The notes: a model not told the origin generated them from the letters alone. A DNA stretch of 64,000 nt from an uncultured Gammaproteobacteria bacterium (GCA_964431235.1 CAYSJA010000030.1:1774-65773), one strand, 5' to 3'; positions 15,266-60,710 are shown, numbered from the stretch's first letter. Numbers and translations: made by a program.

Positions 15266-15285
15266 ATTATTATATTTATCTATTT

Positions 15286-15470: not shown

Positions 15471-15597
15471 ATTATTTTTTAATTATTTTATACTTTTATT
15501 ATAACACAATTTGAAAAAAATAAAACTGCTCTTAATAGCTTTTTATTGGCTAAAAAAAGAATAATTTTTTTATCTTCATACCTAAAATTATGGGTAT

Positions 15598-15627
15598 TTG
15601 ACAATTTGTTAAGCTTTTGTTATATTT
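15598..15627 (+). promoter_or_regulatory. sigma70-like promoter for rpmA
   Basis: TTGACA, 17 nt spacer, TATATT, about 70 nt upstream of the rpmA start. Confidence 0.4.
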
Positions 15628-15697
15628 ATTAAATAAAAGATAAAATAAATTTTAAAATACAAGCTAAAATAGCTAGTATTTTTTAGATAAAATCTAT

Positions 15698-15994
15698 ATG
15701 GCACATAAGAAAGCCGGTGGTTCTACTGCTCTTGGCCGCGATTCAAAAGGTAGACGTCTCGGCATAAAACTAACAGATGGAGAATGGGCTAAGGCCGGCT
15801 CCATTATTATCAGACAACGCGGAACCAAATATCATCCTGGATTAAATGTTAAAAAAGGGAAAGATGACACTTTGTTTGCAACAATTAGTGGATTTGTTAA
15901 ATTTAGTACCAAGAAACTGAAAAAATTTAATAATACCCTAAAAAGCAATAAAATCGTCAATATCATACCAAAAAAGATAACCATTAAAAAATAA
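15698..15994 (+). CDS. rpmA: 50S ribosomal protein L27
   Basis: [24 protein letters not shown]...[12 protein letters not shown]. Confidence 0.9.
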
Positions 15995-16012
15995 TCAAGT
16001 ATAAAAATTTTA

Positions 16013-16045
16013 ATAAAATAGCCTGATGAAGGCTATTTTATTTTT
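16013..16045. terminator. bidirectional rho-independent terminator between convergent rpmA and pyrG
   Basis: ATAGCCT-GATGA-AGGCTAT hairpin flanked by A/T runs on both sides. Confidence 0.55.
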
Positions 16046-16063
16046 AATGTTATTATTAGGTTA

Positions 16064-24059: not shown

Positions 24060-24287
24060 ATCAAAATAATACCATTATAAAAAATAAAAACTAAATTATT
24101 TAATTTATTTTATTTTATCCTGTTTAAGCGGAAAAAGCAATAAAAAAGGCTCTGCAGAAAATAATGTAATAAAAAAAACAAAAATAATAGTAAAATTAGC
24201 TTAGAAAATGAGTTTCCCAACTCAAAGCTAAAAATAAACGTTATTTTGAAAAAATTTATATATTTACCTATAAAAACTTCTCGCTAT

Positions 24288-24316
24288 TGACATAGCCACT
24301 CTTATTCTGTATTATT
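24288..24316 (+). promoter_or_regulatory. sigma70-like promoter upstream of secE-nusG-rplK-rplA
   Basis: TTGACA, 17 nt spacer, TATTAT; followed by the palindrome GTGGCCAC. Confidence 0.45.
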
Positions 24317-24373
24317 TAATTAGATATATAAAGTGGCCACGAGGCTATTTTTAATTACTTATTTTAGCTTTAT

Positions 24374-24553
24374 ATGAATAAACTGATAAAATATATTAAG
24401 GAGTCTAGTATTGAAATGAAAAAAGTGACTTGGCCTAGTAAAAAAGAAACTTACCGCTATACGGTTTTAGTAATTATTATTAGTTTGTCTGTAGCTGCTT
24501 TTCTAGGAGCTTTGGATTATATCTTCAATTTCGGTTTCAAATTAGTAATCTAA
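24374..24553 (+). CDS. secE: preprotein translocase subunit SecE
   Basis: Manual translation MNKLIKYIKESSIEMKKVTWPSKKETYRYTVLVIIISLSVAAFLGALDYIFNFGFKLVI*, SecE-like (VxWPxxxET + TM), directly upstream of nusG. A possible alternative start lies at the internal Met preceded by AAGGAG. Confidence 0.65.
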   Translation: MNKLIKYIKESSIEMKKVTWPSKKETYRYTVLVIIISLSVAAFLGALDYIFNFGFKLVI

Positions 24554-24585
24554 AAAATTTAAATATATAGCTCTATATAAATTTT

Positions 24586-26900: not shown

Positions 26901-27302
26901 TTAGTCTTGATCTGATTTCTTTGTTTTTTTAACTCTGGTCTCATAATCCAAAATTGCTTTTTTTAAACCTTGAATCGCCATTACCGAACAGTGGATCTTT
27001 TGCTGGGGTAATCCTCCTAAATCATCGGTAATTTTCTGCCAAGGGTACTTTTTCGCTTGATCAAGAGTCATACCTTTTACTTTTTCTGTCATTACTGAGG
27101 CAGTAGCAATATTTGAAGCGCAACCAAAGGATAAGAATTTGACATCTTTTATTCTACCTTTTTCTACTTTTAAAAAAAAATCTAATTGATCACCACAAAC
27201 CATATTACCTATCCGGGCATAACCATCTGGTTTTTTAATCTTACCAATATTTCTTGGCTTTAGAAAATGATCTAAAGTTTTTTTAGTATAATTTAAAGAC
27301 AT
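26901..27302 (-). CDS. Fe-S cluster assembly scaffold (NifU/IscU family)
   Basis: GDQLDFFLKV...FLSFGCASNIATAS...HCSVMA, all three scaffold cysteines present. Confidence 0.8.
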   Translation of the reverse strand: MSLNYTKKTLDHFLKPRNIGKIKKPDGYARIGNMVCGDQLDFFLKVEKGRIKDVKFLSFGCASNIATASVMTEKVKGMTLDQAKKYPWQKITDDLGGLPQQKIHCSVMAIQGLKKAILDYETRVKKTKKSDQD

Positions 27303-27448: not shown

Positions 27449-27844
27449 ATGAAAAAAAGATATAAAGATCTTTTAAAACAGCTTATAGCAATCTCTTTTC
27501 TCTCTTTTCTTTTAAGTTATGTTATTAGTTTAATAGGTGTTATTTTAACAGCTTTCAGTCTAGGATACGACTATGATGAGTTAATTAAACCTTTAAAAAG
27601 AAAAAGGAATTGGCTCACTGTTAAAATATTCTTAGCAATGGAAACTGGTTTTTTAGGAAGCTCACTACTTCATGCCGGACTTTTTCCTGGCATAAGTACT
27701 CTTATTACTGTTATAATCGGTATAACAGTTGGTTTTGTTTTTTTTGTTTTTGGATGCTTATTAGAAAAATATAAAAAAAAGAAAAGAAAAGCTACCAATA
27801 CAAAAAAATTTAACTGGTACTACTTAAAAATGCTAATGACTTAA
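27449..27844 (+). CDS. hypothetical small membrane protein
   Basis: 3-4 predicted TM helices, Lys-rich C-terminus; on the opposite strand between nifU-like and nifS-like genes. Confidence 0.4.
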   Translation: MKKRYKDLLKQLIAISFLSFLLSYVISLIGVILTAFSLGYDYDELIKPLKRKRNWLTVKIFLAMETGFLGSSLLHAGLFPGISTLITVIIGITVGFVFFVFGCLLEKYKKKKRKATNTKKFNWYYLKMLMT

Positions 27845-31187: not shown

Positions 31188-32891
31188 TTATTTTTTTCTT
31201 TTAGCAAAAAATTTAGTATGAATAAGCTTAGTTGTCATTTTTTTGTCTTTTACCCATTTATAGTAATTTAACATTACCTGATTTTCATGGGCTCGACGCA
31301 TCTTCTTATCAAGATCTATCTTATACAAACCTTGGCTACGTCTCTTCTTAATCTCAAAAGTAGTAGGAAAAGGTTGTCCACCACCGCCTAGGCAACCGCC
31401 AGGACAAGCCATAACTTCAATATAATGATAATTTTTTAATTTAGTAATAATCTTGGGAAAATTACCAATACCGCTTACAACTGCTACTTTTAGTTTTTTT
31501 CTACCTAAATTAACTGTTGCCTCTTTTATTCCTTTTAACCCTCTTACTTCTTTAAATTCTAATTTAGGCAAAATAGTTCTCTCTTTTTTATTTTTATTAT
31601 ATAAAACAACTGCTGAGCGTAGAGCTGATTCCATTACTCCGCCGGAAGTGCCATAAATGGCAGCCGCCCCAGAACCATCGTTAAATAAAGAATTTGTTTC
31701 GCTATCTTTAAGTGTCGCTAGATCAATCCCCTGCTTTTTCAGCATAAAAGCAAATTCTCTTACCGTCAAGACATAATCTACTAAGCGCCTATTTTTATAA
31801 AATAGTTCTTTTCGTCCAGCCTCGTGTTTTTTGGCAGTACAAGGAACAATTGAAAGTATTTTTATCTTTTTGTCGCTTAATTTATTTTTCTTAGCAAAAT
31901 AGCTTTTTATAGCTCCGGCACTATGAATATGAGGTGAACGAGAGGTAGTAAGACAAGGAATGAGTTCAGGGTGATAAAATTCAACATAAGCAACCCAAGA
32001 TGGACAACAAGAAGTCATCATTGGTAAAATCGCTTTCTTGCTATCCAACCTTTCTAAAAGTTCTTCAGCCTCTACCATAGTGGTAATGTCAGCACCAAAA
32101 TTTATATCAAAAACATAAGAAAAACCGATTTTTTTTAAAGCTGTGTTTATTTTTTTAGCACAGTTTGTGCCATAGGGTAAACCAAATTCTTCGCCTAAAG
32201 AAACTCTAACAGCCGGTGCAAACTGAGCTACCATAATATTATCCTTATTTTCAAGGGCTTTTTCTACTTCTAGCCATTGAGTTTGCTCTTGAGCAGCTGC
32301 TACCGGACAAACATTAGTACATTGGCCACAATAAATACAAGCTTTATTCTTATCAGCTACTGGTTTAACCTCCTGTTTGTAGCCATTACCGTCAAAATGC
32401 AAAAATTCAATTCCTTGCAAAGCACAAGCTTCTATGCAATTACCACAATCAATACATTGGCTACCATCTATTTCTACGGCATTGGAAAATTTATAAGTTT
32501 TACGATTATATTTTCTATCAGTAAATTCAGTTATTTTAATATTATAATCACGCGCCAAGTTCAATAAACCACAATTAAAACGCAAAGTGCAATCTGCACA
32601 TTTTTCAATATGAGAAGCAAATAGGAGCTCAATATTCAAACGCCTCATTTTTCTAACTTTCTCTGATTCTGTTAATATTTCCATCCCCTCCCTTACTAAT
32701 GTAGAATCAGCCGCTTGCAATTTCCTTTCCCCTTTTATTTCTATTAAAGATATTCTATCTCCGCCTTTATTTTTTAAATCCGGATGGTAGGAAAGAAAAG
32801 GAATTTTGATATTATTTTTAAGCGCTACTTCTAATATAGTTTCACCTGGCTTAACTATTAATTTATTATTATTAATTTTAATGTGAATCAT
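31188..32891 (-). CDS. hydA: [FeFe]-hydrogenase catalytic subunit HydA
   Basis: H-cluster motifs L1 MMTSCCPSW, L2 VPCTAKKHE, L3 EVMACPGGCLGGGGQP; two 4Fe-4S motifs CIDCGNCIEAC and CIYCGQCTNVCP; His-ligated cluster region HIEKCADC...NCG; no Cys in the first ~95 residues. Confidence 0.85.
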   Translation of the reverse strand: MIHIKINNNKLIVKPGETILEVALKNNIKIPFLSYHPDLKNKGGDRISLIEIKGERKLQAADSTLVREGMEILTESEKVRKMRRLNIELLFASHIEKCADCTLRFNCGLLNLARDYNIKITEFTDRKYNRKTYKFSNAVEIDGSQCIDCGNCIEACALQGIEFLHFDGNGYKQEVKPVADKNKACIYCGQCTNVCPVAAAQEQTQWLEVEKALENKDNIMVAQFAPAVRVSLGEEFGLPYGTNCAKKINTALKKIGFSYVFDINFGADITTMVEAEELLERLDSKKAILPMMTSCCPSWVAYVEFYHPELIPCLTTSRSPHIHSAGAIKSYFAKKNKLSDKKIKILSIVPCTAKKHEAGRKELFYKNRRLVDYVLTVREFAFMLKKQGIDLATLKDSETNSLFNDGSGAAAIYGTSGGVMESALRSAVVLYNKNKKERTILPKLEFKEVRGLKGIKEATVNLGRKKLKVAVVSGIGNFPKIITKLKNYHYIEVMACPGGCLGGGGQPFPTTFEIKKRRSQGLYKIDLDKKMRRAHENQVMLNYYKWVKDKKMTTKLIHTKFFAKRKK

Positions 32892-32910
32892 TAAATATAA
32901 TTTCTATTTT

Positions 32911-33975
32911 TTATTTTTGTTTATAAATATTTTCTAAATAACTTTTTACAGTCTGGGACAGAGATGATCCTAAAGAACAAAAACTAGCCTGCTCTAAATT
33001 ATCAAGTAAATCAATGAATTTTTTCTTATTAATTTCTCCCTTTTTCAGCATCTCCCTAAGACGATAGCTTCCTTCCCGACAAGGTGTACATAAACCACAG
33101 CTTTCTGTTTCATAATATTTAAGCCAATAATTAAGCAACTTATCCTTATCAGTCTTCTCTTTATTAAAAACCATAATAAAACCAGAGCCTTCAATTGGCG
33201 CTAAAAGCTGATTTTTGTCCAATACTTCGCCGCAAACCTCTCCGCCAAGTATAGCAAAAAAATCAAAATCGGGATAATTATCAGTCGCTCGTAAAATATC
33301 TTCAGCACTAGCATCAGCTGGTAAAGAATAGACGCCCTTATATTTAACCGCGCCCGAAATTGTATATAAACGCTTGCCTTGATATTTATTCTTTGAAATC
33401 AGGCTAACACTATACAAAGTTTCTACATTATTAACTAAAGTTGGTAAATTATTAATTCCCTTTTCGGCCGGAAAAGGCGGTCTTTTTTTAGGCTCCGCCC
33501 TATTTCCTTCTATTATATTCAAAACCGCGCTCTCTTCGCCACCAATATAGCTTGGACTTAACGGTTTGATAAAAAATTTAATTTTTTTAGCTAAAAATAA
33601 ATATTTTTTTTCTGATTTTAAAACGGCAAACAGAGATTTACTGTATAAATTATAGTATTTTCTATTGATATAAAAATAAACTGTCTTTATTTTATTCTTC
33701 CCCAAAAAATTATAAGCCAAATTTATACCATCTATCACTGTTGGTGCTTCATTTTTAAGCAAAAAAGCGTCCTTCTTTACCCCGGGCTCTCCTTCGGCAG
33801 CATTAACCACTATATAACCTCCGGAAACCCTTCTTAAAGCACTTTTAACTATTAGCCATTTTTTAGCAGTTGGAAAATTAGCTCCACCTCGCCCGACTAA
33901 ACCAGCATTTTCAATCTTTTCAATTATACTTTGACTTTTCATGCCTTTAACGCGCCGTCCAGCCGCCATCAACAT
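32911..33975 (-). CDS. NuoF-like NAD(P)H-binding flavoprotein (hydrogenase HydB-like, truncated)
   Basis: GRGGANFPTAKKW, FMN-site NAAEGEPGVKKD, 4Fe-4S N3 motif ESCGLCTPCREG. It is 354 aa, with no N-terminal thioredoxin-like or C-terminal ferredoxin extensions. Confidence 0.75.
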   Translation of the reverse strand: MLMAAGRRVKGMKSQSIIEKIENAGLVGRGGANFPTAKKWLIVKSALRRVSGGYIVVNAAEGEPGVKKDAFLLKNEAPTVIDGINLAYNFLGKNKIKTVYFYINRKYYNLYSKSLFAVLKSEKKYLFLAKKIKFFIKPLSPSYIGGEESAVLNIIEGNRAEPKKRPPFPAEKGINNLPTLVNNVETLYSVSLISKNKYQGKRLYTISGAVKYKGVYSLPADASAEDILRATDNYPDFDFFAILGGEVCGEVLDKNQLLAPIEGSGFIMVFNKEKTDKDKLLNYWLKYYETESCGLCTPCREGSYRLREMLKKGEINKKKFIDLLDNLEQASFCSLGSSLSQTVKSYLENIYKQK

Positions 33976-44519: not shown

Positions 44520-46496
44520 TTATTCCACTCGTCCGGAATTATTTAAAGCGGCAATATCATCATCTTCCAATTTAGTAGTCTTGGGCCCTGATTTAGCGCT
44601 TATTTCCTGTTTAGTTTCGGTATCAATAGCACTGGAAGAAGCTCCAGGTGATAAGACTAAAATTTTATCCCGATCAGATTCTTGTGGCGTCAAAGAAATA
44701 GAAAAAGAAGCTTCTGTCTGATATACTGAAGCTGGTAAACGCCCTATGCTCCAAATAACTTCCCTTTTATCTTGATCAAAATATAAATCACCAACACTAA
44801 CCGAATCATAATTTAACCAAGAGATATTTTTAGGTAAAGCCAGCTTTACTTCAGTTTGCTTAAGCTCATGTAAATTATTTTTTAAACGCCAATATACTCT
44901 AAAAGAGGTAGCTTCGTTAACGCGAGGAGGCAAGGGACCCGAGCCAACGGGTAAATTATTCTCATCAAAATATTTAATTTCTTCTATAATAGATAAATTA
45001 CTATTTAAAGGGCTAGTTATTACATTACTTTTATTTTCGCTATCCGCTCCTTCACTATCACCACCATATTGAGAATAAACGGAAATTTCCATATCTTTCA
45101 AGGAATAATCATTATTATAATCTTTTAGCTTTACGGAAAAATTTATCTCTCCTTCTTCTCCTGGTTTTATCTCGGCCAAAGCAGGAATATCTTGTTTATT
45201 CCAAATTATTTGCCCGGATCTAATTTCACCGGGAACACTAGTTTCAATGCTAGCTAAATCAAACATAAAACCATCTAAAACTGCAGTAATAACAGCATCT
45301 TTAAACGAACTTTCACCTTTATTGCTATAATTCAAGGTATAATTTAAAATTTCGCCAAAATTAACGGCCTGATTATTCTTAGAACCGTTTAAAAATAAGG
45401 CTATATTTAAATCACTCTTCACCGCTTCTATTGATAAAATTTTTTCTAAAAAAGTATAGGATTGGCCATCAGGTAAACGCTGTTTAAGACTAAGAGATAA
45501 ATCAGAAGATAAGGGCTCTTTTTTAGCTAAATAATTAAAAACTAAACTTCGATCAGTTAAATCAGATAAGCTGACCAACCAGCTATTCGGCCCCTCCTTA
45601 ATTGGGGACTCATCATTATCTTTTGCATTATCATCAACAGCTAAATTTATCTCCACTTCTTGGGGGGGGTCAAATTCAATAATAAAATCTGATAAATAAT
45701 TGTCTGAAAAAAAAGAAGAAAAAGAAAGATTTATTTCACTATTTTGACCAACGAAAACAAGATTTGAATAGTCAACATCCATTTCAAGGCCTAATCCATT
45801 TATCACCGTAGCAGCTGAGCTTTCCTTTTTAAACTGGCTGGAAAAATTTAAAGGAGTATAATGCAAGTTACCGGAAATAATATTAACTGACTCCAAAGGG
45901 GCAATAATTTCTCCAGTAACCAAAACATGGGCTTCAGAACCCGCCGGTATATTAGGCAAATTAAAACCGTTGTTTAAAAAATCAGCTTGAGGCTCGGAAA
46001 AAGAAAAGATAAAATTCTCTGGATAGTTGAGTTCTAATCTAACTTTGCTAATAGTGAATTTAGTAGGATTTTTAATAATTATTTTATAAGAGAATTCTTC
46101 ACCAACTAGAACCTCTTCTAAAGCTTCAATCTTAAATTCAACCGCTCCCATGTCACTATCGCCAGTAAAATAATAAATATAAGCAAAAGAAGCGGCTAAA
46201 AATAGAATAACAAAAATAAGCATCCTCTTAAAAATTCTTACTATTAATTTATTTCTTTTTTTTATATTCATTTTTTTTACATCAACAAGACCTCCCTTTT
46301 TATCACGATAAATTTCATTTAAATTAGAATCTATTTCCTGGTGCTTGATTTCTTTATCCAGCACTTCTTCAAAATCAGTTACTTCATTGTCGGACGGGAC
46401 TGGCCGCTTCACAAAAGCTGACAAGCCTGACAATTTATGATTTTTAATTTCCAAATTTTTTTTTGTTTTCTTATTTTGTTTTTTATCTTGTTTCAT
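44520..46496 (-). CDS. hypothetical surface protein, type II membrane topology, extracellular beta-rich repeats (DUF11-like)
   Basis: Lys-rich cytoplasmic N-terminus, one TM helix, ~550 aa Asn/Ser-rich ectodomain; contains a C8 homopolymer in the coding strand. Confidence 0.5.
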   Translation of the reverse strand: MKQDKKQNKKTKKNLEIKNHKLSGLSAFVKRPVPSDNEVTDFEEVLDKEIKHQEIDSNLNEIYRDKKGGLVDVKKMNIKKRNKLIVRIFKRMLIFVILFLAASFAYIYYFTGDSDMGAVEFKIEALEEVLVGEEFSYKIIIKNPTKFTISKVRLELNYPENFIFSFSEPQADFLNNGFNLPNIPAGSEAHVLVTGEIIAPLESVNIISGNLHYTPLNFSSQFKKESSAATVINGLGLEMDVDYSNLVFVGQNSEINLSFSSFFSDNYLSDFIIEFDPPQEVEINLAVDDNAKDNDESPIKEGPNSWLVSLSDLTDRSLVFNYLAKKEPLSSDLSLSLKQRLPDGQSYTFLEKILSIEAVKSDLNIALFLNGSKNNQAVNFGEILNYTLNYSNKGESSFKDAVITAVLDGFMFDLASIETSVPGEIRSGQIIWNKQDIPALAEIKPGEEGEINFSVKLKDYNNDYSLKDMEISVYSQYGGDSEGADSENKSNVITSPLNSNLSIIEEIKYFDENNLPVGSGPLPPRVNEATSFRVYWRLKNNLHELKQTEVKLALPKNISWLNYDSVSVGDLYFDQDKREVIWSIGRLPASVYQTEASFSISLTPQESDRDKILVLSPGASSSAIDTETKQEISAKSGPKTTKLEDDDIAALNNSGRVE

Positions 46497-49005
46497 ATTT
46501 GTTTTTTAAAAGAATAGAAAAATATTTATCCATATCCACGCTGCTTTCAATCAGCCACCCGTTCTGCCAAAAAAGATTATCAGGATGTTTCCAAATAATT
46601 TCCAAATTATCAGGTAAAATTAAACGGCTGATAAAAGAACTCGGTGCTGCCCCTGGCTGCTTTTGCAATAATAAAGAATAAGGAATAAAATTTTCAAAAT
46701 CAGGATTAATAAGTTTATTTAAGCGTTGCCAAAAATTGTTATTTCCCTTCTCTTGATCACTAAAAAAATTAAAAGGTAATTCATAGCTGATACTAATATC
46801 TGCTATCTCTCCCGGGTCAATCATCACCCAACCGGCAAAAACCGTCTTACCGTGCTCTTGGTATATTTTAATCCCACTGATTGGATCTTCTTTTGCTAAC
46901 CTTTCTTCTTGTAAAAATTTACTTTCCAGCCAATCATCCTCTGGCTCCTCAAAATAAGAAGAATCGGGAGCGCTGAAACCGGAAGCAGAAATAAGACGGC
47001 TCCCTAAAGGTACATATACTCTAAGCCAGTTAACATTACGTACTCCGGTTAAAGCTTCATTTTTTATACCCAAATGAGTACGCTCTATTTTTATATTATT
47101 TATTATTTTTCCTGTATTATCAATTTGGGATAAATGTTCTATGTTTTCTGTTATTTTACGATCTGTCTTTTGACCGGCAATATTAGTATTCACCACTAAT
47201 AGGTAATCATGTGTTGAAGGTTTTACCTCTCCAGCCAGATTTTTTTTAACCATCTCTTGTTGTAGCTTAGAATCAGAAAAATAAAACATAATTTGCTTTT
47301 GTGCTAAACTACTTTCAAATAATTTGATAATTTTTACTAAGTTATCTTTATCCAATCTCTGTGGTAAAATTTCTAAAATTCTAACCATTAAATCGCCTAC
47401 TATTTTTTTAGGTTTATTTTCCGGATTATTTTCTAAATCTTGATATAAAGGAACATCAGATTCTATAATTCCTTTCATCTCTTTAAAATCAATTGTTTCC
47501 TCGGGATGAGTCATAATTAAATTATCATGCTCTACAATTTTTTGAACTGTTTCCCAAAAATTATTACTATCTATCACTAGGCCGTATTCCTGGTCCATAT
47601 CTATCGGCCCAGTTATCTCCAATAAATTTTCTACTACTGTCGGTGTAAAAGTAATAACACCATCAACCGTAGATCCACCACTTTTTTCATAAAACCACAT
47701 TAAATTTTCGGCGGTTTTAGGCCAATCAGGCCACCAATTAGCATCCCAAAAGTGCCATAGAGGATTAACTAGCCATAAGGGTTCGGGCGCCTTTACTTTA
47801 ACTGTCATGCTGCCTTCGGTGTCATAAGAGCCCCCAGCCGGAACTTCTACATTCCTGATTCTGCCTTCTCTGATATCTATTAAAGCATAACTGCCTAAAA
47901 AGCCTCCAGAAGCTCTTAGCTCAGCATTATTTTGAAAAACTAATAAATAGCGCTTATCTTGGCTTTGTCCTAATATTTCATAAATTTTATCAGACAAAGA
48001 GATAAAACTGTCTAAATTAATATTTAAAAATTTTGTTTTATCCTTTAAATCTGAAAATTTATCTTGATACTCCAACGGCAAATTATTTTTATCTATTTTA
48101 GAAATAGCTTCCTGTAAATCTAAAGCATCTTGCCGGGCTAAATAGCCATAATAAAAAAAATTCTGTAGAGACGACAAAAAATCGCTTTCGGCTTGATAGT
48201 TAAACAAACTATTTGTTGCTAAAACTAAATTTTTTCCTAGAGACGAACTTAGTGTTCCAGCGGCTAGAATATTTTTACTTTCCGAAGCTAATTTTAATTT
48301 AGGATTATTTGATAGAGAAGCTAAAAAAAACAAAGAATCATTAATTGCCGCTAAATCTTCTTCTGCCCGCAAAAATTCTTGGCTCGCCAAAGAAAAATTT
48401 CTATCAGCACTCTGAAAATCAAATTGAGAAACAGAATCAACCGCTAACGCTAGTTGAGAAATAGCGGCCTGGGAACGAAACATAATCTTAGATTCTAAAT
48501 TATCTAAATTTAAAAACTGAAAATATGATAATATTTTCAAAGGTACTACTAAAAATAGGAGTACAAGGGCAAAGAAAAAAACAGATCGATACCAAGTTAA
48601 TTTGTGCTCTACCCTTTTTAAACGGCGCTTGGTTGAAAAAAAACGACTATTTAAAATTCTTCTTTTATCCTTAATCACTTGTTGCCATAAATTATTGCCT
48701 TTTTTCTTCGTTCTATAAAATTTTAAATCTTTAAGCCAAAAATTTATTTTTGTTTTGAAAAAATCAAACGGCAAACTATGAGATAATAAATTAAAATTAA
48801 AGGATTTTTTCTTTCTTTTATTAATTTTATTAAAAAAAGGTGAACGTAATTTACTAATTTTTTTTAAACCAAAAAAACTGTCTGATTTTTTTCTCTTTTC
48901 TACTTCTTCTTTAAGTGGTTTTTGTTGCCGCAAATCAACCACAAAACTAGAGCTTCTAGCTCGTGCTAACTCTTGAGGGCTTATTTTTTTCTGTCTATTA
49001 ATCAT
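46483..49005 (-). CDS. hypothetical large membrane-anchored protein (possibly DUF4012-like)
   Basis: Basic N-terminus, single TM helix around residue 150, ~680 aa Trp-rich ectodomain; no catalytic motif recognised. Confidence 0.45.
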   Translation of the reverse strand: MINRQKKISPQELARARSSSFVVDLRQQKPLKEEVEKRKKSDSFFGLKKISKLRSPFFNKINKRKKKSFNFNLLSHSLPFDFFKTKINFWLKDLKFYRTKKKGNNLWQQVIKDKRRILNSRFFSTKRRLKRVEHKLTWYRSVFFFALVLLFLVVPLKILSYFQFLNLDNLESKIMFRSQAAISQLALAVDSVSQFDFQSADRNFSLASQEFLRAEEDLAAINDSLFFLASLSNNPKLKLASESKNILAAGTLSSSLGKNLVLATNSLFNYQAESDFLSSLQNFFYYGYLARQDALDLQEAISKIDKNNLPLEYQDKFSDLKDKTKFLNINLDSFISLSDKIYEILGQSQDKRYLLVFQNNAELRASGGFLGSYALIDIREGRIRNVEVPAGGSYDTEGSMTVKVKAPEPLWLVNPLWHFWDANWWPDWPKTAENLMWFYEKSGGSTVDGVITFTPTVVENLLEITGPIDMDQEYGLVIDSNNFWETVQKIVEHDNLIMTHPEETIDFKEMKGIIESDVPLYQDLENNPENKPKKIVGDLMVRILEILPQRLDKDNLVKIIKLFESSLAQKQIMFYFSDSKLQQEMVKKNLAGEVKPSTHDYLLVVNTNIAGQKTDRKITENIEHLSQIDNTGKIINNIKIERTHLGIKNEALTGVRNVNWLRVYVPLGSRLISASGFSAPDSSYFEEPEDDWLESKFLQEERLAKEDPISGIKIYQEHGKTVFAGWVMIDPGEIADISISYELPFNFFSDQEKGNNNFWQRLNKLINPDFENFIPYSLLLQKQPGAAPSSFISRLILPDNLEIIWKHPDNLFWQNGWLIESSVDMDKYFSILLKNKYETR

Positions 49006-50192
49006 TATTTTGCTTTAAACAATATTTCTTTATAAACATTAAAAGTATTGTTGGCACATTCCCACCAATTATATAAACGGCTCCTTTTATAACCTCTTTC
49101 CTTCATTTTTTGACGTAAATCACTATCATTAAGAACTAATTTTATCTTAGATAAAAAGTCATTCTTATCTTCAGGATTAAAATAAACAGCTGCCATGCCT
49201 AAAATTTCCGGCAAACTAGCTCTATCCGAGCTTATCACCGGACAACCTTTAGCCATAGCCTCTAAAGGGGGCAAACCAAAACCTTCATATAAAGAGGGAA
49301 AAACATAGGCTTTGGCTTCCTGATAAAGAATTTCTAATTGAGCATCGGGCACATAGCCAGGAAAAACCGCTGAACTATTTATATTCTCTTTCTGCCATAA
49401 ATTTAAAGACTGGGCATATTGCTGGATGCGTTGATAAAAATAATCGGGCTTACCTACTAAAACCAGTTTTAATTCCGGCTTATCTTCACGTAAATCAGCA
49501 AAAACATCAAGTAGAGTTTCTAAATTCTTATGAGGATAGGCGTTTCCCACATAAAGCAAAAAATTGTTACCTAAGTGATATCTCTGACGCGTTTCTTTAG
49601 GATCAATTTTAGAAATGAATAAAGAGTCGCGGCCGCGGGATAAATTTGAAACACCCTCATAAGTTACCACTATTTTTTCCGGATTTAGCTTGAATTTGCT
49701 GATAATATCCTTTTTAGTAAATTCAGAAACAGCAATTATTTTTTTAGCCCGCCAAACAGCAATTTTTAACACTAAACGATAAGCAAAATTTTTAAACTTA
49801 TAGACGGTTGTATTTTTTGTAGTTGCCCTAATGGTAGAAAAATGGGTTAAAATTAAATCATGCAAGGTTACGACGAACTTAACCGGTGTCATTATAGGAA
49901 CATTAAAATGGGGGAAATGTATTAAATCCAAATTTTCTCTAGCAATACAAAAAGGTAGAAAAATTTGTTCTTGCCAAGAATACCAGGGAATACTTATCTT
50001 GACTTTCCTAACCCGCGGACTATTACTATAAAATTCATCATAATTATTAGGACTTAAAAAAATAACAAAATCGCAGGCTTCTTCTTCCTGAAAATTATTT
50101 ATTTTTATTATATTATCCACCACTTCCTGGGTATAACGACCCAAACCTTTGCCAATTGGGCCGTAAAAGCGGGCATCTATGCCTATTTTCAT
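49005..50192 (-). CDS. glycosyltransferase family 4 (GT-B)
   Basis: C-terminal EGFGLPPLEAMAKGCPVISS motif typical of GT4. Confidence 0.8.
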   Translation of the reverse strand: MKIGIDARFYGPIGKGLGRYTQEVVDNIIKINNFQEEEACDFVIFLSPNNYDEFYSNSPRVRKVKISIPWYSWQEQIFLPFCIARENLDLIHFPHFNVPIMTPVKFVVTLHDLILTHFSTIRATTKNTTVYKFKNFAYRLVLKIAVWRAKKIIAVSEFTKKDIISKFKLNPEKIVVTYEGVSNLSRGRDSLFISKIDPKETRQRYHLGNNFLLYVGNAYPHKNLETLLDVFADLREDKPELKLVLVGKPDYFYQRIQQYAQSLNLWQKENINSSAVFPGYVPDAQLEILYQEAKAYVFPSLYEGFGLPPLEAMAKGCPVISSDRASLPEILGMAAVYFNPEDKNDFLSKIKLVLNDSDLRQKMKERGYKRSRLYNWWECANNTFNVYKEILFKAK

Positions 50193-50221
50193 GCTACTTA
50201 TCTAAATATCTTTGATAAAAA

Positions 50222-51667
50222 TTAAGTAAAAGGGAGGTTTTCTGGAGGCGAAGCCTTTTTTTGAGGGACATCGTCTGTTATCTTAGAATCGTTTTTTTCC
50301 ACAAAAAAATTCTCGTTATTTTTATTATCATTTTTAAAAAAACTATCGGGAATTGGCGTCAATTCTGAATCTAGAGGTAAAGAAAAAGGGGCATCCGCCT
50401 TTTTACCCTGAGTTTTTTGTATTAAAGACGCCTTAACACTGCCCTCTAAAGGAAAATGCCATAAAGTTGCCAATTCTTCTATATTAAATATGCGAGGCGA
50501 TAAACCTTGACTGTTAGATCTTTTGACATAAGCTTGAAAAATTCTGTTTTTCTTTCTCTGTAAACGTGGTTCCCGCCAAAAATAAGCTGTCCTGGTCATA
50601 GTTTTTTTAACATCGGGTTTTAGATTATTTAAATCTAAAGCGGCAAACTGCTTCATAAAGCCAACAATACCATTAGCGACCTTGGCCTTATTCATAATTT
50701 CTTTTTGGGACACATACACCATTCTTATTTTAGCGGTAAAAGCTAATTTACTGGCTTTAAGACTAATACCTTCTAATTTCTTTTGTTCTGAAGGAGTTAA
50801 ATCTAGCATAGTTTTTATCTTCTCTTCTTTTTCCTTATTTTCAATATCGCCCCAAATGCTATAAATAACTTCACTTAATTCGCCCAACCACTCCATTAGT
50901 TGCATAAAAAACCCTTTTTTAGCTTTTGATTTTCTCTCCAGAATCTTATCAACTTCTTTTTCTACATCTTTAACCCAATCAAAACCAATCGGGGTAACAA
51001 TAAATTGTAGCCATAGCTGCTCGCCTTGACGTAAAGAACCACATAAATCCATTAAACTAGCCATCGGATCCTTAAATTGTGTTTCTTCAGGTCCAATTTG
51101 ATGTTCAAAATCACGATAACACTTAATTGGATACATCCAAGGAGATGCTTGGGTAAACTCTACGCCCCAAATATCATATTCTTCATCCGGATATTTTTGC
51201 GCTACCGTTTCTGTATAGTCGTCAACTTCGGAAATTTCTGCATCAGGGTACTGGGAATAGACAGAAGATTCAATTAAATTCCTATATTCAGCCGGGGTTC
51301 TAATTAAAAATTGGGTATAACCCTCCAAGCTGACAACCTCATAGCTAAAAGATTTCTGAAATTTGCCCTCAAACCATGTTTCAAAAAAATTTTCTGTACC
51401 ATGGGCGCCGGCTAGATAAGTAAACATGTTTTCCACTGCCTTAGGTGTCTGTTCATTACCCTTGGGGATATCAATCGCTAAAAGTATATTTTTATGGGTA
51501 GCCGCCCATTTATTCCTTAACCAATAAAGATAGACTTGGAGCACTCCCCAAATAAAAAAGATCCCGATTATCAACCAACCAAAATTACCAATAAAGGACC
51601 AAAACATCTCATCAGGTGGCAAACTAAAAAATTTTTCTATACCGGCAGTATTTATAACTATATCCAT
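50222..51667 (-). CDS. hypothetical membrane protein
   Basis: Two N-terminal TM helices then a ~400 aa domain with no recognised motifs. Confidence 0.4.
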   Translation of the reverse strand: MDIVINTAGIEKFFSLPPDEMFWSFIGNFGWLIIGIFFIWGVLQVYLYWLRNKWAATHKNILLAIDIPKGNEQTPKAVENMFTYLAGAHGTENFFETWFEGKFQKSFSYEVVSLEGYTQFLIRTPAEYRNLIESSVYSQYPDAEISEVDDYTETVAQKYPDEEYDIWGVEFTQASPWMYPIKCYRDFEHQIGPEETQFKDPMASLMDLCGSLRQGEQLWLQFIVTPIGFDWVKDVEKEVDKILERKSKAKKGFFMQLMEWLGELSEVIYSIWGDIENKEKEEKIKTMLDLTPSEQKKLEGISLKASKLAFTAKIRMVYVSQKEIMNKAKVANGIVGFMKQFAALDLNNLKPDVKKTMTRTAYFWREPRLQRKKNRIFQAYVKRSNSQGLSPRIFNIEELATLWHFPLEGSVKASLIQKTQGKKADAPFSLPLDSELTPIPDSFFKNDNKNNENFFVEKNDSKITDDVPQKKASPPENLPFT

Positions 51668-51773
51668 AATTTAAAGGCTATCTTTAATAAAATTTTATCA
51701 TATATTAATAAAAAAAGAAATCCGCCCAACTAAATGGGTGGATCACTTAAATAGTCTTATTTTTAAAATATTA

Positions 51774-52811
51774 TTATTGATTTTGCCACTCCTTTAAACC
51801 ATAAGTTCCGCGGCTAACTAATACATAACGACTATCAAGAATAAGTTCATTGTGAACAGTGGCAGCATTAGCCCTCTTTTTATCAAAATTGACTTCATTT
51901 ATTTTATCAGCAATAGTGGTAAAATGCAGAGGTCTACCTTCGTGCTTTAACACTAAGAATATCTTATCATTAACTGTTTTAGGTTTTATTTCCTGCCAAT
52001 TTGCTATTCCCCATTCGCCGTATTTATTACGCTCTAAATTTTTTACCGCTTGCATTAAAGAATATAAAATTTTATTTTGATTTATAGTTTCCGCTTTATC
52101 TGGGAAAACTTGGCTTTTAAAAATAGCTTCAATATCAAAACTATCTGATTGAAATTTCTCTTGATAACGAGAATAAGATTCCAATTCTTTTAACACCTCT
52201 ATTAACTCTTCAGTCTTCAAGGTTTTCTTTAAACCATCTACTCGGCTAACAAGACTATCAGCTAATTCTTCAAGATTAGATATTTCTTTATCTTTTAATT
52301 TAAAAGAAGGGGTAAATTTATCACTTTTTTTTATAAACTCCAAATCATCAGCCATTAGTTTAGAAAGTAAGAAATTAAAATGATTTTTATAAGTTTGACG
52401 CAATTTTTCATCGATTAAATCTATATTTTTATCAGACTTCATTTCTAAAGCAATAACGGTTAGAATATCCAATAAATAATCACGTCTAATCAAACCTCCG
52501 TGTTCTTCCATTAATTTATAAACTGCCTGTTTAAAATTGCTTATATAATTTTCTAAATTCTCTAATTTTTTAATCTTCCTGATACTAGCTGCCTCAATTT
52601 GTCTAACTCGTTCTCTGGTTAATTTATGCAAACTACCTATTTTTTCCAAAGTTTCACTTTTATCTCCCTTTAAGCCGAAACGTCTGGTTAAAATATCGCG
52701 CTCCCTATCCATTAATTGGGAAAAAAGATTACTAACAATACTAATAGCATCTAAACGACCCACTTCCTCATTCTTCTGTTCTTTAATAATTTTTTCTAAA
52801 ATATTTTCCAT
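51774..52811 (-). CDS. DNA-binding protein with N-terminal sigma-70 region 4 HTH and C-terminal HARE-HTH-like domain
   Basis: Residues ~35-85, ERDILTRRFGL...TLEKIGSLHKLTRERVRQIEAASIRKI, look like sigma region 4. The C-terminus, FTTIADKINE...ATVHNELILDSRYVLVSRGTYGLKEW, resembles the HARE-HTH of RpoE-delta/ASXL-type domains ending in WGL..W. Confidence 0.5.
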   Translation of the reverse strand: MENILEKIIKEQKNEEVGRLDAISIVSNLFSQLMDRERDILTRRFGLKGDKSETLEKIGSLHKLTRERVRQIEAASIRKIKKLENLENYISNFKQAVYKLMEEHGGLIRRDYLLDILTVIALEMKSDKNIDLIDEKLRQTYKNHFNFLLSKLMADDLEFIKKSDKFTPSFKLKDKEISNLEELADSLVSRVDGLKKTLKTEELIEVLKELESYSRYQEKFQSDSFDIEAIFKSQVFPDKAETINQNKILYSLMQAVKNLERNKYGEWGIANWQEIKPKTVNDKIFLVLKHEGRPLHFTTIADKINEVNFDKKRANAATVHNELILDSRYVLVSRGTYGLKEWQNQ

Positions 52812-52914
52812 ATATAAAAATAAAGTAATAGCAACTTTAATTCTTAATTAATTATTGTTTATTGTCTATCAAAACTTTATTTATTTTATCACATTATTTT
52901 ATATTAGTCAATAG

Positions 52915-53862
52915 TTATTTGTTAAACATTTTTTTATATTGCTTTAAATTATATTGCTCTAATATTAAAGAAAAAATAAAAAGAATAAAAATTCTAATAA
53001 TTATTATCATTCGACTATAAAAAGTTTCTTTAGAAAAATGCTTTATAAATAAAAGATGTTGACTATAAAAAGACCAACTCTTTATCTCTTTGCTTTTCTT
53101 TTTTCTATTCAGCCAAAAGGCTAAAAAACCACGGCTATAAGAAGCTGCACTTCTGTCATGATATATAATAGCTTGATGAACTAGGGCTGATTTCAAACCG
53201 GCTAATTTCAAGCGATAGGCTAAATCACAATCCTCTTTATACATAAAAAAATCCGGATCAAAATAAAATCCTTTTTCCCTAATTTTATCTAAAGCAGATA
53301 ATCGGAACAATCCGGCCGCCCCTGAAGGTGCAATTATTGTTTTATCGTCATACTGGCCTTCATCTTTCTCTCCTTGCCCTAAATCAATAAATTTCAAACC
53401 TGGCCTTAACAATAATCCACAGGAATCTATTTGTCTGGTTTTTTTAAAATTCGCAAAATCCCAACGCAAAATTTTAGGAGCAACAGCCGCCAATTCGGAT
53501 TTTTCTTCCAAAACCTTTAATAAAAAAAAGAGCGAATTTTTTTCTGGTAAAGTATCAGGATTAATTAATAAAAAATATTCAGCTTCTAATTCTTTAGCCC
53601 GGGCAATTAAGAAATTATAAGCAGAACCGAAACCGATATTCTTACTTTTACTATGATATTCAATTTTGAATTGATGTTTATAATCAAAAAACTCTAAAGC
53701 CAGGCGATTAGTATTCTCATCCTCATTACTATTATCAAATACCATTACTTTATAACTATTTTCTGGCAAAAAATGTAAAGCTTCCTTTAAAGCTGGCAAA
53801 AAATAAGCTAAATATTTAGCGCTTACCTGATTATAAGTTATAAAACCGAGCGCCAGCTTCAT
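52915..53862 (-). CDS. glycosyltransferase family 2
   Basis: N-terminal GT-A fold (ITYNQ...VFDNSNED...GFGSAYN) and a C-terminal TM helix. Confidence 0.7.
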   Translation of the reverse strand: MKLALGFITYNQVSAKYLAYFLPALKEALHFLPENSYKVMVFDNSNEDENTNRLALEFFDYKHQFKIEYHSKSKNIGFGSAYNFLIARAKELEAEYFLLINPDTLPEKNSLFFLLKVLEEKSELAAVAPKILRWDFANFKKTRQIDSCGLLLRPGLKFIDLGQGEKDEGQYDDKTIIAPSGAAGLFRLSALDKIREKGFYFDPDFFMYKEDCDLAYRLKLAGLKSALVHQAIIYHDRSAASYSRGFLAFWLNRKKKSKEIKSWSFYSQHLLFIKHFSKETFYSRMIIIIRIFILFIFSLILEQYNLKQYKKMFNK

Positions 53863-53923
53863 ATTAGCAAAAATCTATATTTAAAAATATTAAAAAATTA
53901 CAAGACTAAGCTCTATAGCTTTA

Positions 53924-54649
53924 TTATATTAGCATTTTTCTAGCCAACTTCTCTTTAGCAAAGGTTTGTGCTTTAAGCAAGCTATCAAAAGTTCCAGCAT
54001 CCAGCCATTCTCCTTTAACTATGGCTACGTTGAGCTCGTTTCGTTTCAAATACCAATTATTAAGATCAGTTATCTCCAGTTCACCGCGTTCGCTCGGCTT
54101 TATTTGTTTAGCTGCTTTTATTACTTTATTATCATAAATATATAAACCAGTAACAGCATAATCGCTTAAAAATTCCGATGGTTTTTCCACTATAACTTCA
54201 GCTTTCATGTCTTGATTAAATTTCACTACTCCGAATCTTTCTGGATCTGGTACGCGTTTAGCAAAAATTTTAGCACCGCCAGAAAAATTCTTCATATCAG
54301 CAAAAAAATCATCTTCAAAAATATTATCTCCTAAAATCATCGCTACATCTTCTTCGTCAATAAAATTCTCACCAATAATAAAGGCCTGGGCTAAGCCTTC
54401 TGGCTTATCTTGGATTTCATAAGTGAATTTAACGCCAAATTCTTTGCCGGAACCTAATAAATTTAAATAATCACCTGCTCTCTCTGGCGCCACTATAATA
54501 AGGATTTCTTTGATACCGGCCTTTATTAAAGTATTTAAAGGATAATAAATCATTGGGCGATGATAAACCGGTAAAAGCTGCTTGCTAGTTATTTTAGTAA
54601 GCGGTCTCAATCTAGTACCGCTACCGCCGGAAAGTATTATACCTCTCAT
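53924..54649 (-). CDS. sugar-phosphate nucleotidyltransferase (RfbA-like glucose-1-phosphate thymidylyltransferase, short)
   Basis: MRGIILSGGSGTRLRPLT; 241 aa. Confidence 0.75.
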   Translation of the reverse strand: MRGIILSGGSGTRLRPLTKITSKQLLPVYHRPMIYYPLNTLIKAGIKEILIIVAPERAGDYLNLLGSGKEFGVKFTYEIQDKPEGLAQAFIIGENFIDEEDVAMILGDNIFEDDFFADMKNFSGGAKIFAKRVPDPERFGVVKFNQDMKAEVIVEKPSEFLSDYAVTGLYIYDNKVIKAAKQIKPSERGELEITDLNNWYLKRNELNVAIVKGEWLDAGTFDSLLKAQTFAKEKLARKMLI

Positions 54650-55509
54650 AAAATTTTTTTTAAATAATCTTTTAAAGCGTCTTGATAAGGACGCATTTTC
54701 TTTCTTTTATTGTTTTTTAAAACTGAAAATTTAGGACGCCGTGCCGGACGAGCTAAATCCTCGCTTCTTATTGGTCTAATAAAAATTTCTTTTTTAGCCA
54801 AACGAAAAAACTCACGTGCTCCTTCATACCAAGTAGCTGGATTTTCGTTAACTAAATGATAAATGCCATAAGCAGGGCGAGCTACAAATAAACGAGCACT
54901 GGAAGCTGCTAAATCAGGGGTATAAGTAAAACAGCTCAACTCTTCATTCACGGCTAAAATCTCAGATTTATTTTCAGCTAGTTTAAATATAATATCAAAA
55001 AAACCGGGCTTAGCCAAGGAGCTCTCGCTTTTAGGCCCGAATAATTTCGATGTTCTTATTAAATAATATTTTAAACCTTTGCCCTCTAGGCGCTTTATTT
55101 CTAATTCTCCTAAAAATTTACTTTCCCCGTATTTATTTATCGGATTAGGTGTATCCTCTTCAGAAAAATCAGGTTTACCGCTAAAACCATTGAAAACATA
55201 ATCTGTAGAATAATGTACTAAAATAAAATCTATTTTCAAGGCCAAACTAGCTAAATGGGCGGGTAAATCACGATTAAGAGCTAAGGCTTGGAAATATTTT
55301 TTTTCATCTTCACAATTATCAACTTGGTTATAAGCTACCGTATTTATTACTAAATCAGGCTTGATATCCAGCAACACCTTTAATAGAACCTCCTTATCAA
55401 GAACATCAAAATCTTGCTTATCAAAAGAATGGAGTTCATGATCAGAATTTAAAGCAATCTTTAATTGCGATCCTAGATTACCTTGTCCGCCCAATAATAC
55501 TATTTTCAT
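54646..55509 (-). CDS. rfbD: dTDP-4-dehydrorhamnose reductase
   Basis: MKIVLLGGQGNLGSQL; HYSTDYVFNG. Confidence 0.8.
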   Translation of the reverse strand: MKIVLLGGQGNLGSQLKIALNSDHELHSFDKQDFDVLDKEVLLKVLLDIKPDLVINTVAYNQVDNCEDEKKYFQALALNRDLPAHLASLALKIDFILVHYSTDYVFNGFSGKPDFSEEDTPNPINKYGESKFLGELEIKRLEGKGLKYYLIRTSKLFGPKSESSLAKPGFFDIIFKLAENKSEILAVNEELSCFTYTPDLAASSARLFVARPAYGIYHLVNENPATWYEGAREFFRLAKKEIFIRPIRSEDLARPARRPKFSVLKNNKRKKMRPYQDALKDYLKKIL

Positions 55510-60594: not shown

Positions 60595-60680
60595 AATTCA
60601 CCTTTCAAGTTTAATTATACACCACTTGCCCCCAAGGGTCAACACTTTTATTTTATCTAATATAAAGGAAAAATTATTAA

Positions 60681-60710
60681 AAAGACCACTTATCAACAAG
60701 TGGCCTGTTT
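60681..60710 (-). terminator. rho-independent terminator after the tsaB-like gene, upstream of mraZ
   Basis: Minus strand reads CAGGCCACTTGTTGATAAGTGGTCTTTTT. Confidence 0.5.

Follow-up and report, generated by a model that had tools for sequence, protein, structure and literature searches.

The DNA considered here is a stretch of 64,000 nucleotides (CAYSJA010000030.1:1774-65773), referred to below as the window. At 44520-55509 it carries eight consecutive minus-strand genes that encode, in the direction of transcription, an RmlD-like dTDP-4-dehydrorhamnose reductase, an RmlA-like sugar nucleotidyltransferase, a family 2 glycosyltransferase (GT2), a protein combining sigma-70 region 4 with a HARE-HTH domain (sigma4/HARE-HTH), a stand-alone DUF8128 protein, a family 4 glycosyltransferase (GT4), a DUF4012 protein and a membrane protein with Ig-like domains. 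A preliminary description had read them as a single system devoted to an S-layer or cell-surface glycoprotein and its glycosylation. Our comparisons lead, with moderate confidence, to a different reading: the interval would not be one operon-system, but would juxtapose a nucleotide-sugar block, two genes without a family-level tie to glycans, and a coupled GT4-DUF4012-Ig-like core for which a function can be proposed.

Homologues of the large proteins carry the names Patescibacteria or Candidatus Falkowbacteria in homologue searches. The window therefore belongs to a small, streamlined, Falkowbacteria-like chromosome of the Patescibacteria or Candidate Phyla Radiation (CPR), in which the interval lies between the dcw cell-wall cluster and tgt.

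Gene content and conservation of gene order

The eight open reading frames (ORFs) were all found exactly where the preliminary description had placed them, and its family calls were borne out by Pfam and NCBIfam scans (Table 1). Two family names are added here, DUF4012 for the protein of 840 residues (aa) and DUF8128 for the protein of 481 aa; the match of PF26449 to the latter was taken from a precomputed table, our own Pfam scan giving none. For the 840-aa, 658-aa and sigma4/HARE-HTH proteins, over 100 homologues aligning along nearly the full length were found (45-79% identity), and the 481-aa protein matches 57 related loci (median identity 63%), so that the ORFs can be regarded as real genes and not as chance ORFs. 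Among 43 relatives, median identity is 83% for RmlA, 70% for sigma4/HARE-HTH, 67% for GT4 and for tgt, 65% for the Mur ligase, 63% for DUF8128, 58% for RmlD, 53% for GT2, 52.5% for DUF4012 and 48% for the Ig-like protein. The DUF4012 and Ig-like ectoproteins are thus the fastest-evolving of the compared set, yet they are far from hypervariable and close to GT2 and RmlD.

The genes are unevenly spaced. Stop and start overlap between rmlD and rmlA (by 4 nt) and between GT4 and DUF4012 (by 1 nt), and the DUF4012 and Ig-like genes overlap by 14 nt. The GT4 start lies 29 nt past the DUF8128 gene, while the sigma4/HARE-HTH gene stands between gaps of 103 and 106 nt.

Gene order was compared in two sets of loci. 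The close set, with one genome per species, holds 80 loci with DUF4012 relatives of 42-64% identity, of which 51 have enough flanking sequence; they were searched by tblastn with the window proteins. The distant set holds 80 further loci (32-49% identity) from a metagenome scan seeded with diverse representatives, and its denominators vary with the flank available. The order rmlD-rmlA-GT2-sigma4/HARE-DUF8128-GT4-DUF4012-Ig-like is kept in 48-49 of the 51 close loci, and the large proteins matched no well-characterised family of unrelated function, so that neither of the outcomes named as refuting the preliminary description was observed. In a Falkowbacteria relative (L038, 4347-6096), rmlA is missing between rmlD and GT2 and the order is otherwise intact.

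This conservation extends beyond the eight genes. Upstream, the close loci also keep the genes for the penicillin-binding protein (PBP) and the Mur ligase; downstream, they keep tgt and the genes for pyruvate kinase and the metallophosphoesterase. Because PBP, Mur ligase, tgt and pyruvate kinase are just as syntenic as the interval, synteny cannot mark out a unit: the eight-gene order reflects clade-wide collinearity and is no proof of a single system.

Rearranged relatives keep GT4-DUF4012-Ig-like alone. The GT4 gene is immediately upstream of DUF4012 in all 51 genome loci and in 46/60 metagenome loci, and the Ig-like gene immediately downstream in 51/51 and 43/53, respectively. The rmlD, rmlA, GT2 and sigma4/HARE-HTH genes, on the other hand, occur in the window-type arrangement only and are lost in every rearranged one. 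Within the flanks of distant loci, rmlA was found in 12 of 37, sigma4/HARE-HTH in 15 of 37 and DUF8128 in 15 of 37, and every distant locus with either of the last two in its flanks has the window-type arrangement. Two rearranged loci illustrate the pattern: L059 reads ParA-ParB-GT4-DUF4012-Ig-tgt, and in L075 a GT2, a CDP-alcohol phosphatidyltransferase and a PMT_2/GT-C-like protein precede GT4-DUF4012-Ig-tgt. As it persists across rearranged lineages while the other genes drop out, the translationally coupled triad GT4-DUF4012-Ig-like is the conserved core.

Further CPR loci place DUF4012 beside other envelope-type genes. In L098 it is next to Wzy_C and GHL15 genes, and the GHL15 gene lies there between two GT4 genes. 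A MurJ/MOP flippase gene follows DUF4012 in L155 (12959-14830) and L165 (1864-3459). A conserved PMT_2/GT-C-like protein with 8-11 transmembrane (TM) segments is encoded before DUF4012 in L075 (5804-7696), L096, L100, L103, L108 and L141, and in five of these six loci (not in L100) a divergently oriented gene for a protein with 10-15 TM segments also precedes DUF4012. No homologue of the GT-C-like, flippase or polytopic companion proteins was found in the window.

Table 1. Genes of the interval and the related ATPase gene of the window, with supporting profile matches.
Feature	Coordinates	Strand	Evidence
Ig-like type II membrane protein, 658 aa	44520-46496	-	PF01345 DUF11/CLIPPER 33.5 bits (cut-off 24.6); TIGR01451 24.5 (cut-off 24)
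DUF4012 protein, 840 aa	46483-49005	-	PF13196 E=7.8e-30
Soluble GT4 glycosyltransferase, 395 aa	49005-50192	-	PF00534 E=1e-37; PF13439 E=1e-12
Stand-alone DUF8128 protein, 481 aa	50222-51667	-	PF26449
Sigma-70 region 4 + HARE-HTH protein, 345 aa	51774-52811	-	PF04545 E=7e-11 (residues 30-82); PF05066 E=4e-7 (residues 279-342)
GT2, C-terminal TM anchor, 315 aa	52915-53862	-	PF00535 E=3.4e-8; TIGR01556 rhamnosyltransferase E=2.5e-7, far under cut-off
RmlA-like sugar nucleotidyltransferase (short, glucose-1-phosphate thymidylyltransferase-like), 241 aa	53924-54649	-	PF00483 E=1.4e-62
RmlD-like dTDP-4-dehydrorhamnose reductase, 287 aa	54646-55509	-	PF04321 E=1.2e-62
DUF8128-VirD4/TraG/HerA-like ATPase fusion, 822 aa	12276-14744	-	PF10412, PF02534, PF01935, PF12696

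The encoded proteins

The DUF4012 protein matches PF13196 (104.7 bits, cut-off 28) along residues 349-488, which correspond to model positions 2-140 of 144, and all 52 aligned homologues match the same profile. Hydropathy and charge predict a single-pass type II protein (N-terminus inside) with a cytoplasmic tail of 134 residues, 40 of them lysine or arginine. The AlphaFold2 (AF2) model (mean confidence, pLDDT, 73.5) comprises a TM helix, a helical stalk (167-344), an alpha/beta core (~349-600) and a C-terminal beta-sandwich. More than 100 residues are invariant across the 52 homologues, including DxRY..FQNN.E.R..GGF, WHFWDANWWP, VDGV and NKPKK; because of them, the protein looks more constrained than a lattice protein or an adhesin would be, and more like an enzyme or part of a machine. 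The family is large (9314 clusters at 50% identity) and was listed among the envelope families enriched in CPR and Gram-positive bacteria (Meheust et al. 2019, PMC6744442). Members from Eubacterium/Lachnospira, Rhodococcus and Streptomyces share the architecture of N-terminal TM helix, helical stalk, core motifs and C-terminal beta domain, and distant members keep the motifs R.Y..FQN.E.R..GG, VDGV..TP...L...GP and NN..G.K.DY. Weak Foldseek matches to ribophorin-like domains of oligosaccharyltransferase (OST) and to N-domains of M1 peptidases (TM-scores 0.11-0.24) are assumed to cover the beta-sandwich, the aligned range not being reported.

The 658-aa protein is likewise predicted to be a single-pass type II protein with its N-terminus inside, its cytoplasmic tail having 81 residues with 21 lysines or arginines. 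In the AF2 model (pLDDT 81.4), four or five Ig-like beta-sandwiches follow the TM helix in tandem, and one of them is a DUF11/CLIPPER domain (PF01345, residues 373-457, above the gathering score). The topology and the beta-rich, DUF11-like ectodomain proposed in the preliminary description are upheld by these predictions. Foldseek matches of the protein are generic (the Ig-like region of PrgB, integrin legs), and the first-strand lysine of the isopeptide triad is apparently replaced (DLNIALF), judged by eye. Among the proteins with DUF11/CLIPPER domains are surface stalk proteins and some archaeal porins associated with S-layers (PMC12617251). The tandem sandwiches, one above the DUF11 gathering threshold, resemble the stalks of CLIPPER/DUF11 fibrillar adhesins (PMC12617251). 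The 658-aa protein differs from these in its anchor, an N-terminal TM helix and not a signal peptide with a sortase or other C-terminal sorting signal, and also in having no adhesive head, only four or five domains and a housekeeping-like evolutionary rate.

Several short motifs recur at the ends of these proteins. The Ig-like protein has an invariant acidic C-terminal tail, TTKLEDDD..G (44520-44580), and stand-alone DUF8128 proteins end in a conserved APPxNLPF (PPxNLPF tail, 50222-50260). A conserved S.FV motif was observed in the basic cytoplasmic tails of both large proteins (SxFVVDLR, SAFVxRPVP). All three may be docking peptides. A 361-aa ORF at 6230-7315 (-), without Pfam match, is paralogous to the last ~290 residues of the 658-aa protein (25% identity, E ~1e-9) and adjoins a gene for a GHL15 and FG-GAP protein at 7331-9361 (-).

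The RmlA- and RmlD-like proteins are clearly members of their families by profile score, but stay under the equivalog level of NCBIfam. TIGR01207 scores 306.6 bits on the former against a cut-off of 360.65, and TIGR01214 scores 217.1 bits on the latter, just below its cut-off of 224.05. The RmlA-like gene is the most conserved of the interval and the RmlD-like gene is present in 49 of the 51 syntenic relatives. The GT2, whose TM anchor is placed at residues 279-306 by hydropathy and charge, looks weakly rhamnosyltransferase-like; no sequence relative was found in the PDB.

The scan of the window covered 54 ORFs of at least 100 aa; six others were left out, four of them out-of-frame overlaps and two short (26901-27302, 27449-27844). 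The claim that RfbB and RfbC are absent from the window stood up in these 54 ORFs, and no RmlB (dTDP-glucose 4,6-dehydratase) or RmlC (3,5-epimerase) domain was found in them or in the ~14 kb of contig that flank the window. Two extra ORFs in L021, a relative with added DNA between the Mur ligase gene and rmlD, contain no Rml domain either. The dTDP-L-rhamnose pathway is therefore incomplete within ~78 kb of contig. As had also been claimed, no Wzx, Wzy or ABC-exporter domain was detected in the 54 ORFs or in the ~14 kb beyond the ends, and no priming transferase was among the scanned window ORFs. With RmlABCD and a WbbL-type GT2, the window shares translationally coupled RmlA- and RmlD-like genes and, next after them, a GT2 weakly similar to rhamnosyltransferases. 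It differs in the two enzymes not found, in a short RmlA (241 aa), and in scores below the equivalog cut-offs for RmlA and RmlD and far below the cut-off for the GT2.

Just to the left of the window (L185 1-4284), on the source contig MLSed_10000320, a JGI metagenome contig of 92 kb, lie genes for a DUF1972-like GT4, a 378-aa ORF, CorA and a WecG/TagA-family glycosyltransferase. The WecG/TagA gene suggests that the organism makes a glycopolymer of the undecaprenyl-linked linkage-unit type.

The 481-aa protein had been described as a two-TM protein of the surface glycan locus. It has one hydrophobic stretch of 30 residues (21-50) and, since positive charge follows this stretch, its bulk is probably cytoplasmic. 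Its residues 22-431 align with the N-terminal half of an 822-aa ATPase encoded ~32 kb away (BLASTP E=3e-19). It has no ATPase domain itself and aligns solely with the non-ATPase N-terminal 390 residues of this paralogue, whose C-terminal half matches TrwB_AAD_bind, T4SS-DNA_transf, DUF87 and TraG-D_C. It is thus probably a cytoplasmic DUF8128 protein homologous to the N-terminal domain of a VirD4/TraG-like ATPase, and not a surface or glycan protein. The paralogue resembles the coupling proteins of type IV secretion systems (T4SS; VirD4/TraG/TrwB) and the FtsK-HerA ATPases in this C-terminal half and in its N-terminal membrane anchor. The locus departs from these systems in that the 481-aa protein has no P-loop ATPase domain and no VirB-type component or relaxase is nearby (no VirB4, VirB6 or relaxase among the scanned window ORFs); the DUF8128 module has no characterised counterpart. 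Profile searches of DUF8128 against PDB sequences returned noise only, and a literature search for "DUF8128" found no paper.

DUF8128 occurs near DUF4012 in three arrangements: as a stand-alone copy directly before GT4 (the window type), as an ATPase fusion directly after DUF4012 (L096, L099, L102 and probably L095), and as a split DUF8128 and ATPase pair three genes before GT4 (L100). In the window, the 822-aa ATPase gene is directly upstream of dnaX (10626-12272 (-)). The order in L102 is DUF4012, ATPase, one ORF and dnaX, and in L100 and L134 DUF4012 is one gene before dnaX, with a conserved ORF of ~300 aa between them. The adjacency of ATPase and dnaX in the window, together with the order in L102, suggests that an ancestral DUF4012-ATPase-dnaX order was split in the window lineage, the stand-alone DUF8128 being kept with the triad. 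No degraded second DUF4012 copy was detected by tblastn beside the 822-aa ATPase gene. The DUF8128-DUF4012 linkage is absent from the papers searched and is the most interesting lead of this analysis, although not a universal one.

In the sigma4/HARE-HTH protein, which NCBI names "sigma factor-like HTH DNA-binding protein", the sigma match is confined to region 4 (residues 24-90); Pfam, NCBIfam and PDB searches gave no match to regions 2 or 3. Since it lacks these regions, it was ruled out as a sigma factor. Its N-terminal region matches sigma region 4.2 of RpoD/RpoS, and its C-terminal HARE-HTH domain is like that of the RNA polymerase subunit delta (RpoE; TIGR04567 E=2.4e-7). It differs from delta in having no acidic tail, and the domain combination is uncharacterised. 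Nothing relevant on "HARE-HTH" with "sigma" appeared in the titles and abstracts of the top-ranked papers. The gene is the second most conserved of the interval, its median identity of 70% exceeding the values for tgt and the Mur ligase. In view of this conservation, the protein is probably a general transcription factor, which is likelier than the control of the eight-gene locus assigned to it earlier. A promoter-like site was noted beside its gene (52911-52883).

A possible role in envelope glycan assembly

Outside the CPR, DUF4012 genes are found in polysaccharide clusters. In Bifidobacterium longum 105-A, the DUF4012 gene BL105A_0406 stands between a priming transferase gene and wzz (PMC5412050). 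On a Rhodococcus plasmid, a priming sugar transferase gene stands on one side of DUF4012 and further glycosyltransferase genes on the other, with rmlC, rfbA, rfbB and an ABC transporter nearby. On a Streptomyces plasmid, it adjoins a pair of genes for a bacterial tyrosine kinase (BY-kinase) and a phosphatase, and GT4 genes and one of the O-antigen-ligase family are close by. As DUF4012 genes of distant phyla sit inside such clusters, a glycan role for the GT4-DUF4012-Ig-like core is plausible by analogy, and the assembly of an envelope glycan or lipoglycan is the best-supported inference for DUF4012. Of the preliminary interpretation, the presence of cell-envelope glycan genes in the interval is supported, while S-layer glycosylation by one system is not.

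A possible mechanism can be outlined on this basis. The products of rmlD and rmlA would supply a dTDP-sugar, which the membrane-anchored GT2 would transfer at the cytoplasmic face. The soluble GT4 would build or extend a lipid-linked or membrane-anchored glycan on the inner side of the membrane. The DUF4012 protein, with its basic cytoplasmic tail and its large, strongly conserved ectodomain with many charged and aromatic residues, could handle this glycan outside the single membrane, in assembly, transfer or attachment, and the TM-anchored Ig-like stalk protein could be its extracellular partner or scaffold. DUF8128 would be a recurrent cytoplasmic neighbour, possibly a module coupling to a VirD4/TraG-type ATPase.

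The exopolysaccharide and capsular polysaccharide clusters of Actinomycetota share with the window a DUF4012 protein of the same family, architecture and motifs, adjacent genes for GT4s or other glycosyltransferases and, in Rhodococcus, Rml genes nearby. They differ in containing a priming sugar transferase, Wzz or a BY-kinase, a phosphatase, an ABC transporter or an O-antigen-ligase-type gene, of which the window has none. The CPR protein is longer (840 vs ~610 aa) with a much larger basic tail, and neither the Ig-like partner nor DUF8128 is annotated in the three non-CPR contexts examined.

Several points weigh against a glycan-assembly core. Adjacency in compact CPR genomes can persist without a functional link, and it is weak evidence on its own because tgt, which encodes an unrelated tRNA enzyme, also follows the Ig-like gene directly, in 51/51 and 26/37 loci. 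With neither a priming transferase nor a flippase found in the window, no complete pathway can be drawn. In 22 of the 37 distant loci, the flanks of DUF4012 lack DUF8128. Foldseek searches of the PDB with the DUF4012 model gave no convincing relative (best TM-scores 0.13-0.38), and profile searches against PDB sequences gave only noise. Finally, a promoter and terminator scan found 82 promoter-like sites for 71 expected from shuffling, which is not above chance, and is uninformative for transcription-unit borders.

Four other explanations were weighed. In the first, which we regard as unlikely, GT4, DUF4012 and the Ig-like stalk form a CPR-specific trans-envelope machine with a membrane-anchored VirD4/TraG/FtsK-HerA-type ATPase that has DUF8128 as its N-terminal module, for the ATP-driven assembly or secretion of a surface structure or for macromolecule transfer at host contact. 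In the window lineage, the ATPase gene would have moved 32 kb off, a stand-alone DUF8128 remaining beside the triad. The three arrangements of DUF8128 beside DUF4012 are in its favour, as is the window ATPase gene directly before dnaX, a place that it holds after DUF4012 in L102. The long, motif-bearing basic tails of both large proteins could dock a cytoplasmic partner, and the top, though generic, Foldseek match of the stalk is the Ig-like region of PrgB, an adhesin of a Gram-positive T4SS. Yet the linkage could reflect an ancestral gene order at dnaX, the 22 distant loci without DUF8128 nearby tell against it, and the scanned window ORFs contain no other T4SS component; nor did DUF8128 find a profile match in the PDB.

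In the second, DUF4012 would be a functional analogue or very distant relative of the LytR-CpsA-Psr (LCP) ligases, moving a completed lipid-linked glycopolymer to peptidoglycan or another acceptor on the outer side of the membrane. The gene for the LCP protein CpsA holds a comparable position in streptococcal cps loci. Actinobacterial DUF4012 genes lie beside phosphatase, BY-kinase and priming transferase genes (PMC5412050), the family is restricted to monoderm-type lineages (PMC6744442), and the locus neighbours the genes for PBP and the Mur ligase. The window and 87 related or comparison loci yielded no LCP gene. Among the Foldseek matches, 3pe5_A, which a consensus search identified as an LCP protein, ranks 20th (probability 1.00, E=4.4e-3; target TM-score 0.38). 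It is nevertheless the only one of ~18 distinct LCP structures among the top 50 matches, with a root-mean-square deviation of 10 A. Homology was tested further with ten LCP sequences from PDB alignments and plasmid records, three distant DUF4012 proteins being added to the CPR alignment. The hhalign comparison of the DUF4012 core with LCP alignments gave a probability of 0.2% in both attempts, hmmscan of the 52 members gave no LCP match (PF03816) even at E<=10, and the characteristic Arg/Asp motifs could not be aligned with statistical support. These sequence and profile comparisons gave no support to LCP homology, and the explanation is kept as a rather improbable one.

The preliminary reading itself, in which all eight genes form one system, with the 658- and/or 840-aa proteins as S-layer or surface glycoproteins glycosylated by GT4, GT2 and Rml enzymes under sigma4/HARE-HTH control, is now very unlikely. 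What speaks for it is the eight-gene order of 48-49/51 relatives, the extracytoplasmic position of both large proteins, the DUF11/CLIPPER domain with its occurrences in stalk proteins and archaeal S-layer-associated porins (PMC12617251), and a weak similarity of GT4 to the adhesin O-glycosyltransferases SdgA/SdgB, among many GT4 subfamilies. That order is shared by the flanks, and rml, GT2 and sigma4 genes are lost in every rearranged arrangement while the triad is kept. Both large proteins are predicted to be extracytoplasmic and membrane-anchored, and none of the S-layer or sortase signals sought was found. Pfam and NCBIfam scans detected no SLH or other anchoring domain in the 658- and 840-aa proteins. 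Their N-termini have no signal peptide, consisting of a long basic tail and then the TM helix that anchors them, and their C-termini (...KLEDDDIAALNNSGRVE and ...ILLKNKYETR) show no LPXTG or PEP-CTERM motif and no hydrophobic tail, hence no sortase or exosortase signal. Their clade-wide identity of 48-52%, like that of GT2 and RmlD, is unlike the hypervariability that S-layer proteins or adhesins would be expected to show. The more than 100 invariant residues of DUF4012 and the probable nature of the 481-aa protein, a cytoplasmic ATPase-associated domain, also speak against it.

Equally hard to credit is the absence of any functional unit beyond rmlD-rmlA, the genes being neighbours by frozen order in a reduced, co-directional genome: the housekeeping flanks as syntenic as the locus, the position of tgt and the failure of promoter or terminator signals to mark out units agree with it, but the GT4-DUF4012 adjacency survives many independent rearrangements over 32-64% identity, the triad has stop/start overlaps, and DUF4012 occurs in glycan clusters of two other phyla.

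Returning to the glycan-assembly core, the window module, widespread among relatives and surrounded by housekeeping genes, can be seen as the CPR form of the polysaccharide clusters associated with DUF4012, which are poorly understood; the Ig-like stalk partner and the DUF8128/VirD4 ATPase link are its lineage-specific features. The association of DUF4012 with envelope polysaccharides is already in the literature; the present analysis adds the triad and the repeated DUF8128/ATPase link. Patescibacteria, which live on host cells to which they attach, make up a large share of bacterial diversity, and almost nothing of their envelope has been characterised. The triad with its DUF8128/VirD4 link offers a defined candidate module for surface-glycan assembly in the CPR, possibly for host attachment. 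A bolder and doubtful proposal is that GT4, DUF4012, the Ig-like stalk and the DUF8128/VirD4-type ATPase constitute an undescribed envelope machine widespread among Patescibacteria, coupling an FtsK/HerA/VirD4-class ATPase to the assembly or export of a glycan-bearing surface structure, possibly at host contact, with DUF4012 as the extracytoplasmic catalytic or transfer part. For annotation, the lesson is that conserved order alone defines no locus in collinear, co-directional genomes, where rearranged lineages separate core from passenger genes.

Genomic surroundings

The window has a G+C content of ~32% and nearly all of its genes are co-directional, on one strand. Directly upstream of the interval lie mraZ-mraW-ftsL-PBP-Mur ligase, and directly downstream tgt, pyruvate kinase and others. 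The rest of the window is largely housekeeping, with aminoacyl-tRNA synthetases, ribosomal proteins and an [FeFe]-hydrogenase. In the whole 64 kb, ARAGORN found no tRNA gene and no Rfam family reached its gathering score, despite several intergenic gaps of 400-800 nt (e.g. 15266-16063, 24060-24585).

The strongest promoter-like site of the region (60614-60706 (-), TTGACC-17-TATAAT, 11/12 matches) lies shortly ahead of mraZ, and the strongest terminator-like hairpin precedes this site. From mraZ to tgt no comparable signal was seen, so that a very long transcription unit covering mraZ-tgt is possible. Elsewhere, at 31188-33975 (-), the gene for the [FeFe]-hydrogenase large subunit, which has ferredoxin-like domains, adjoins that for a NuoF-like flavoprotein; the two form an electron-bifurcating-type pair in a reduced genome.

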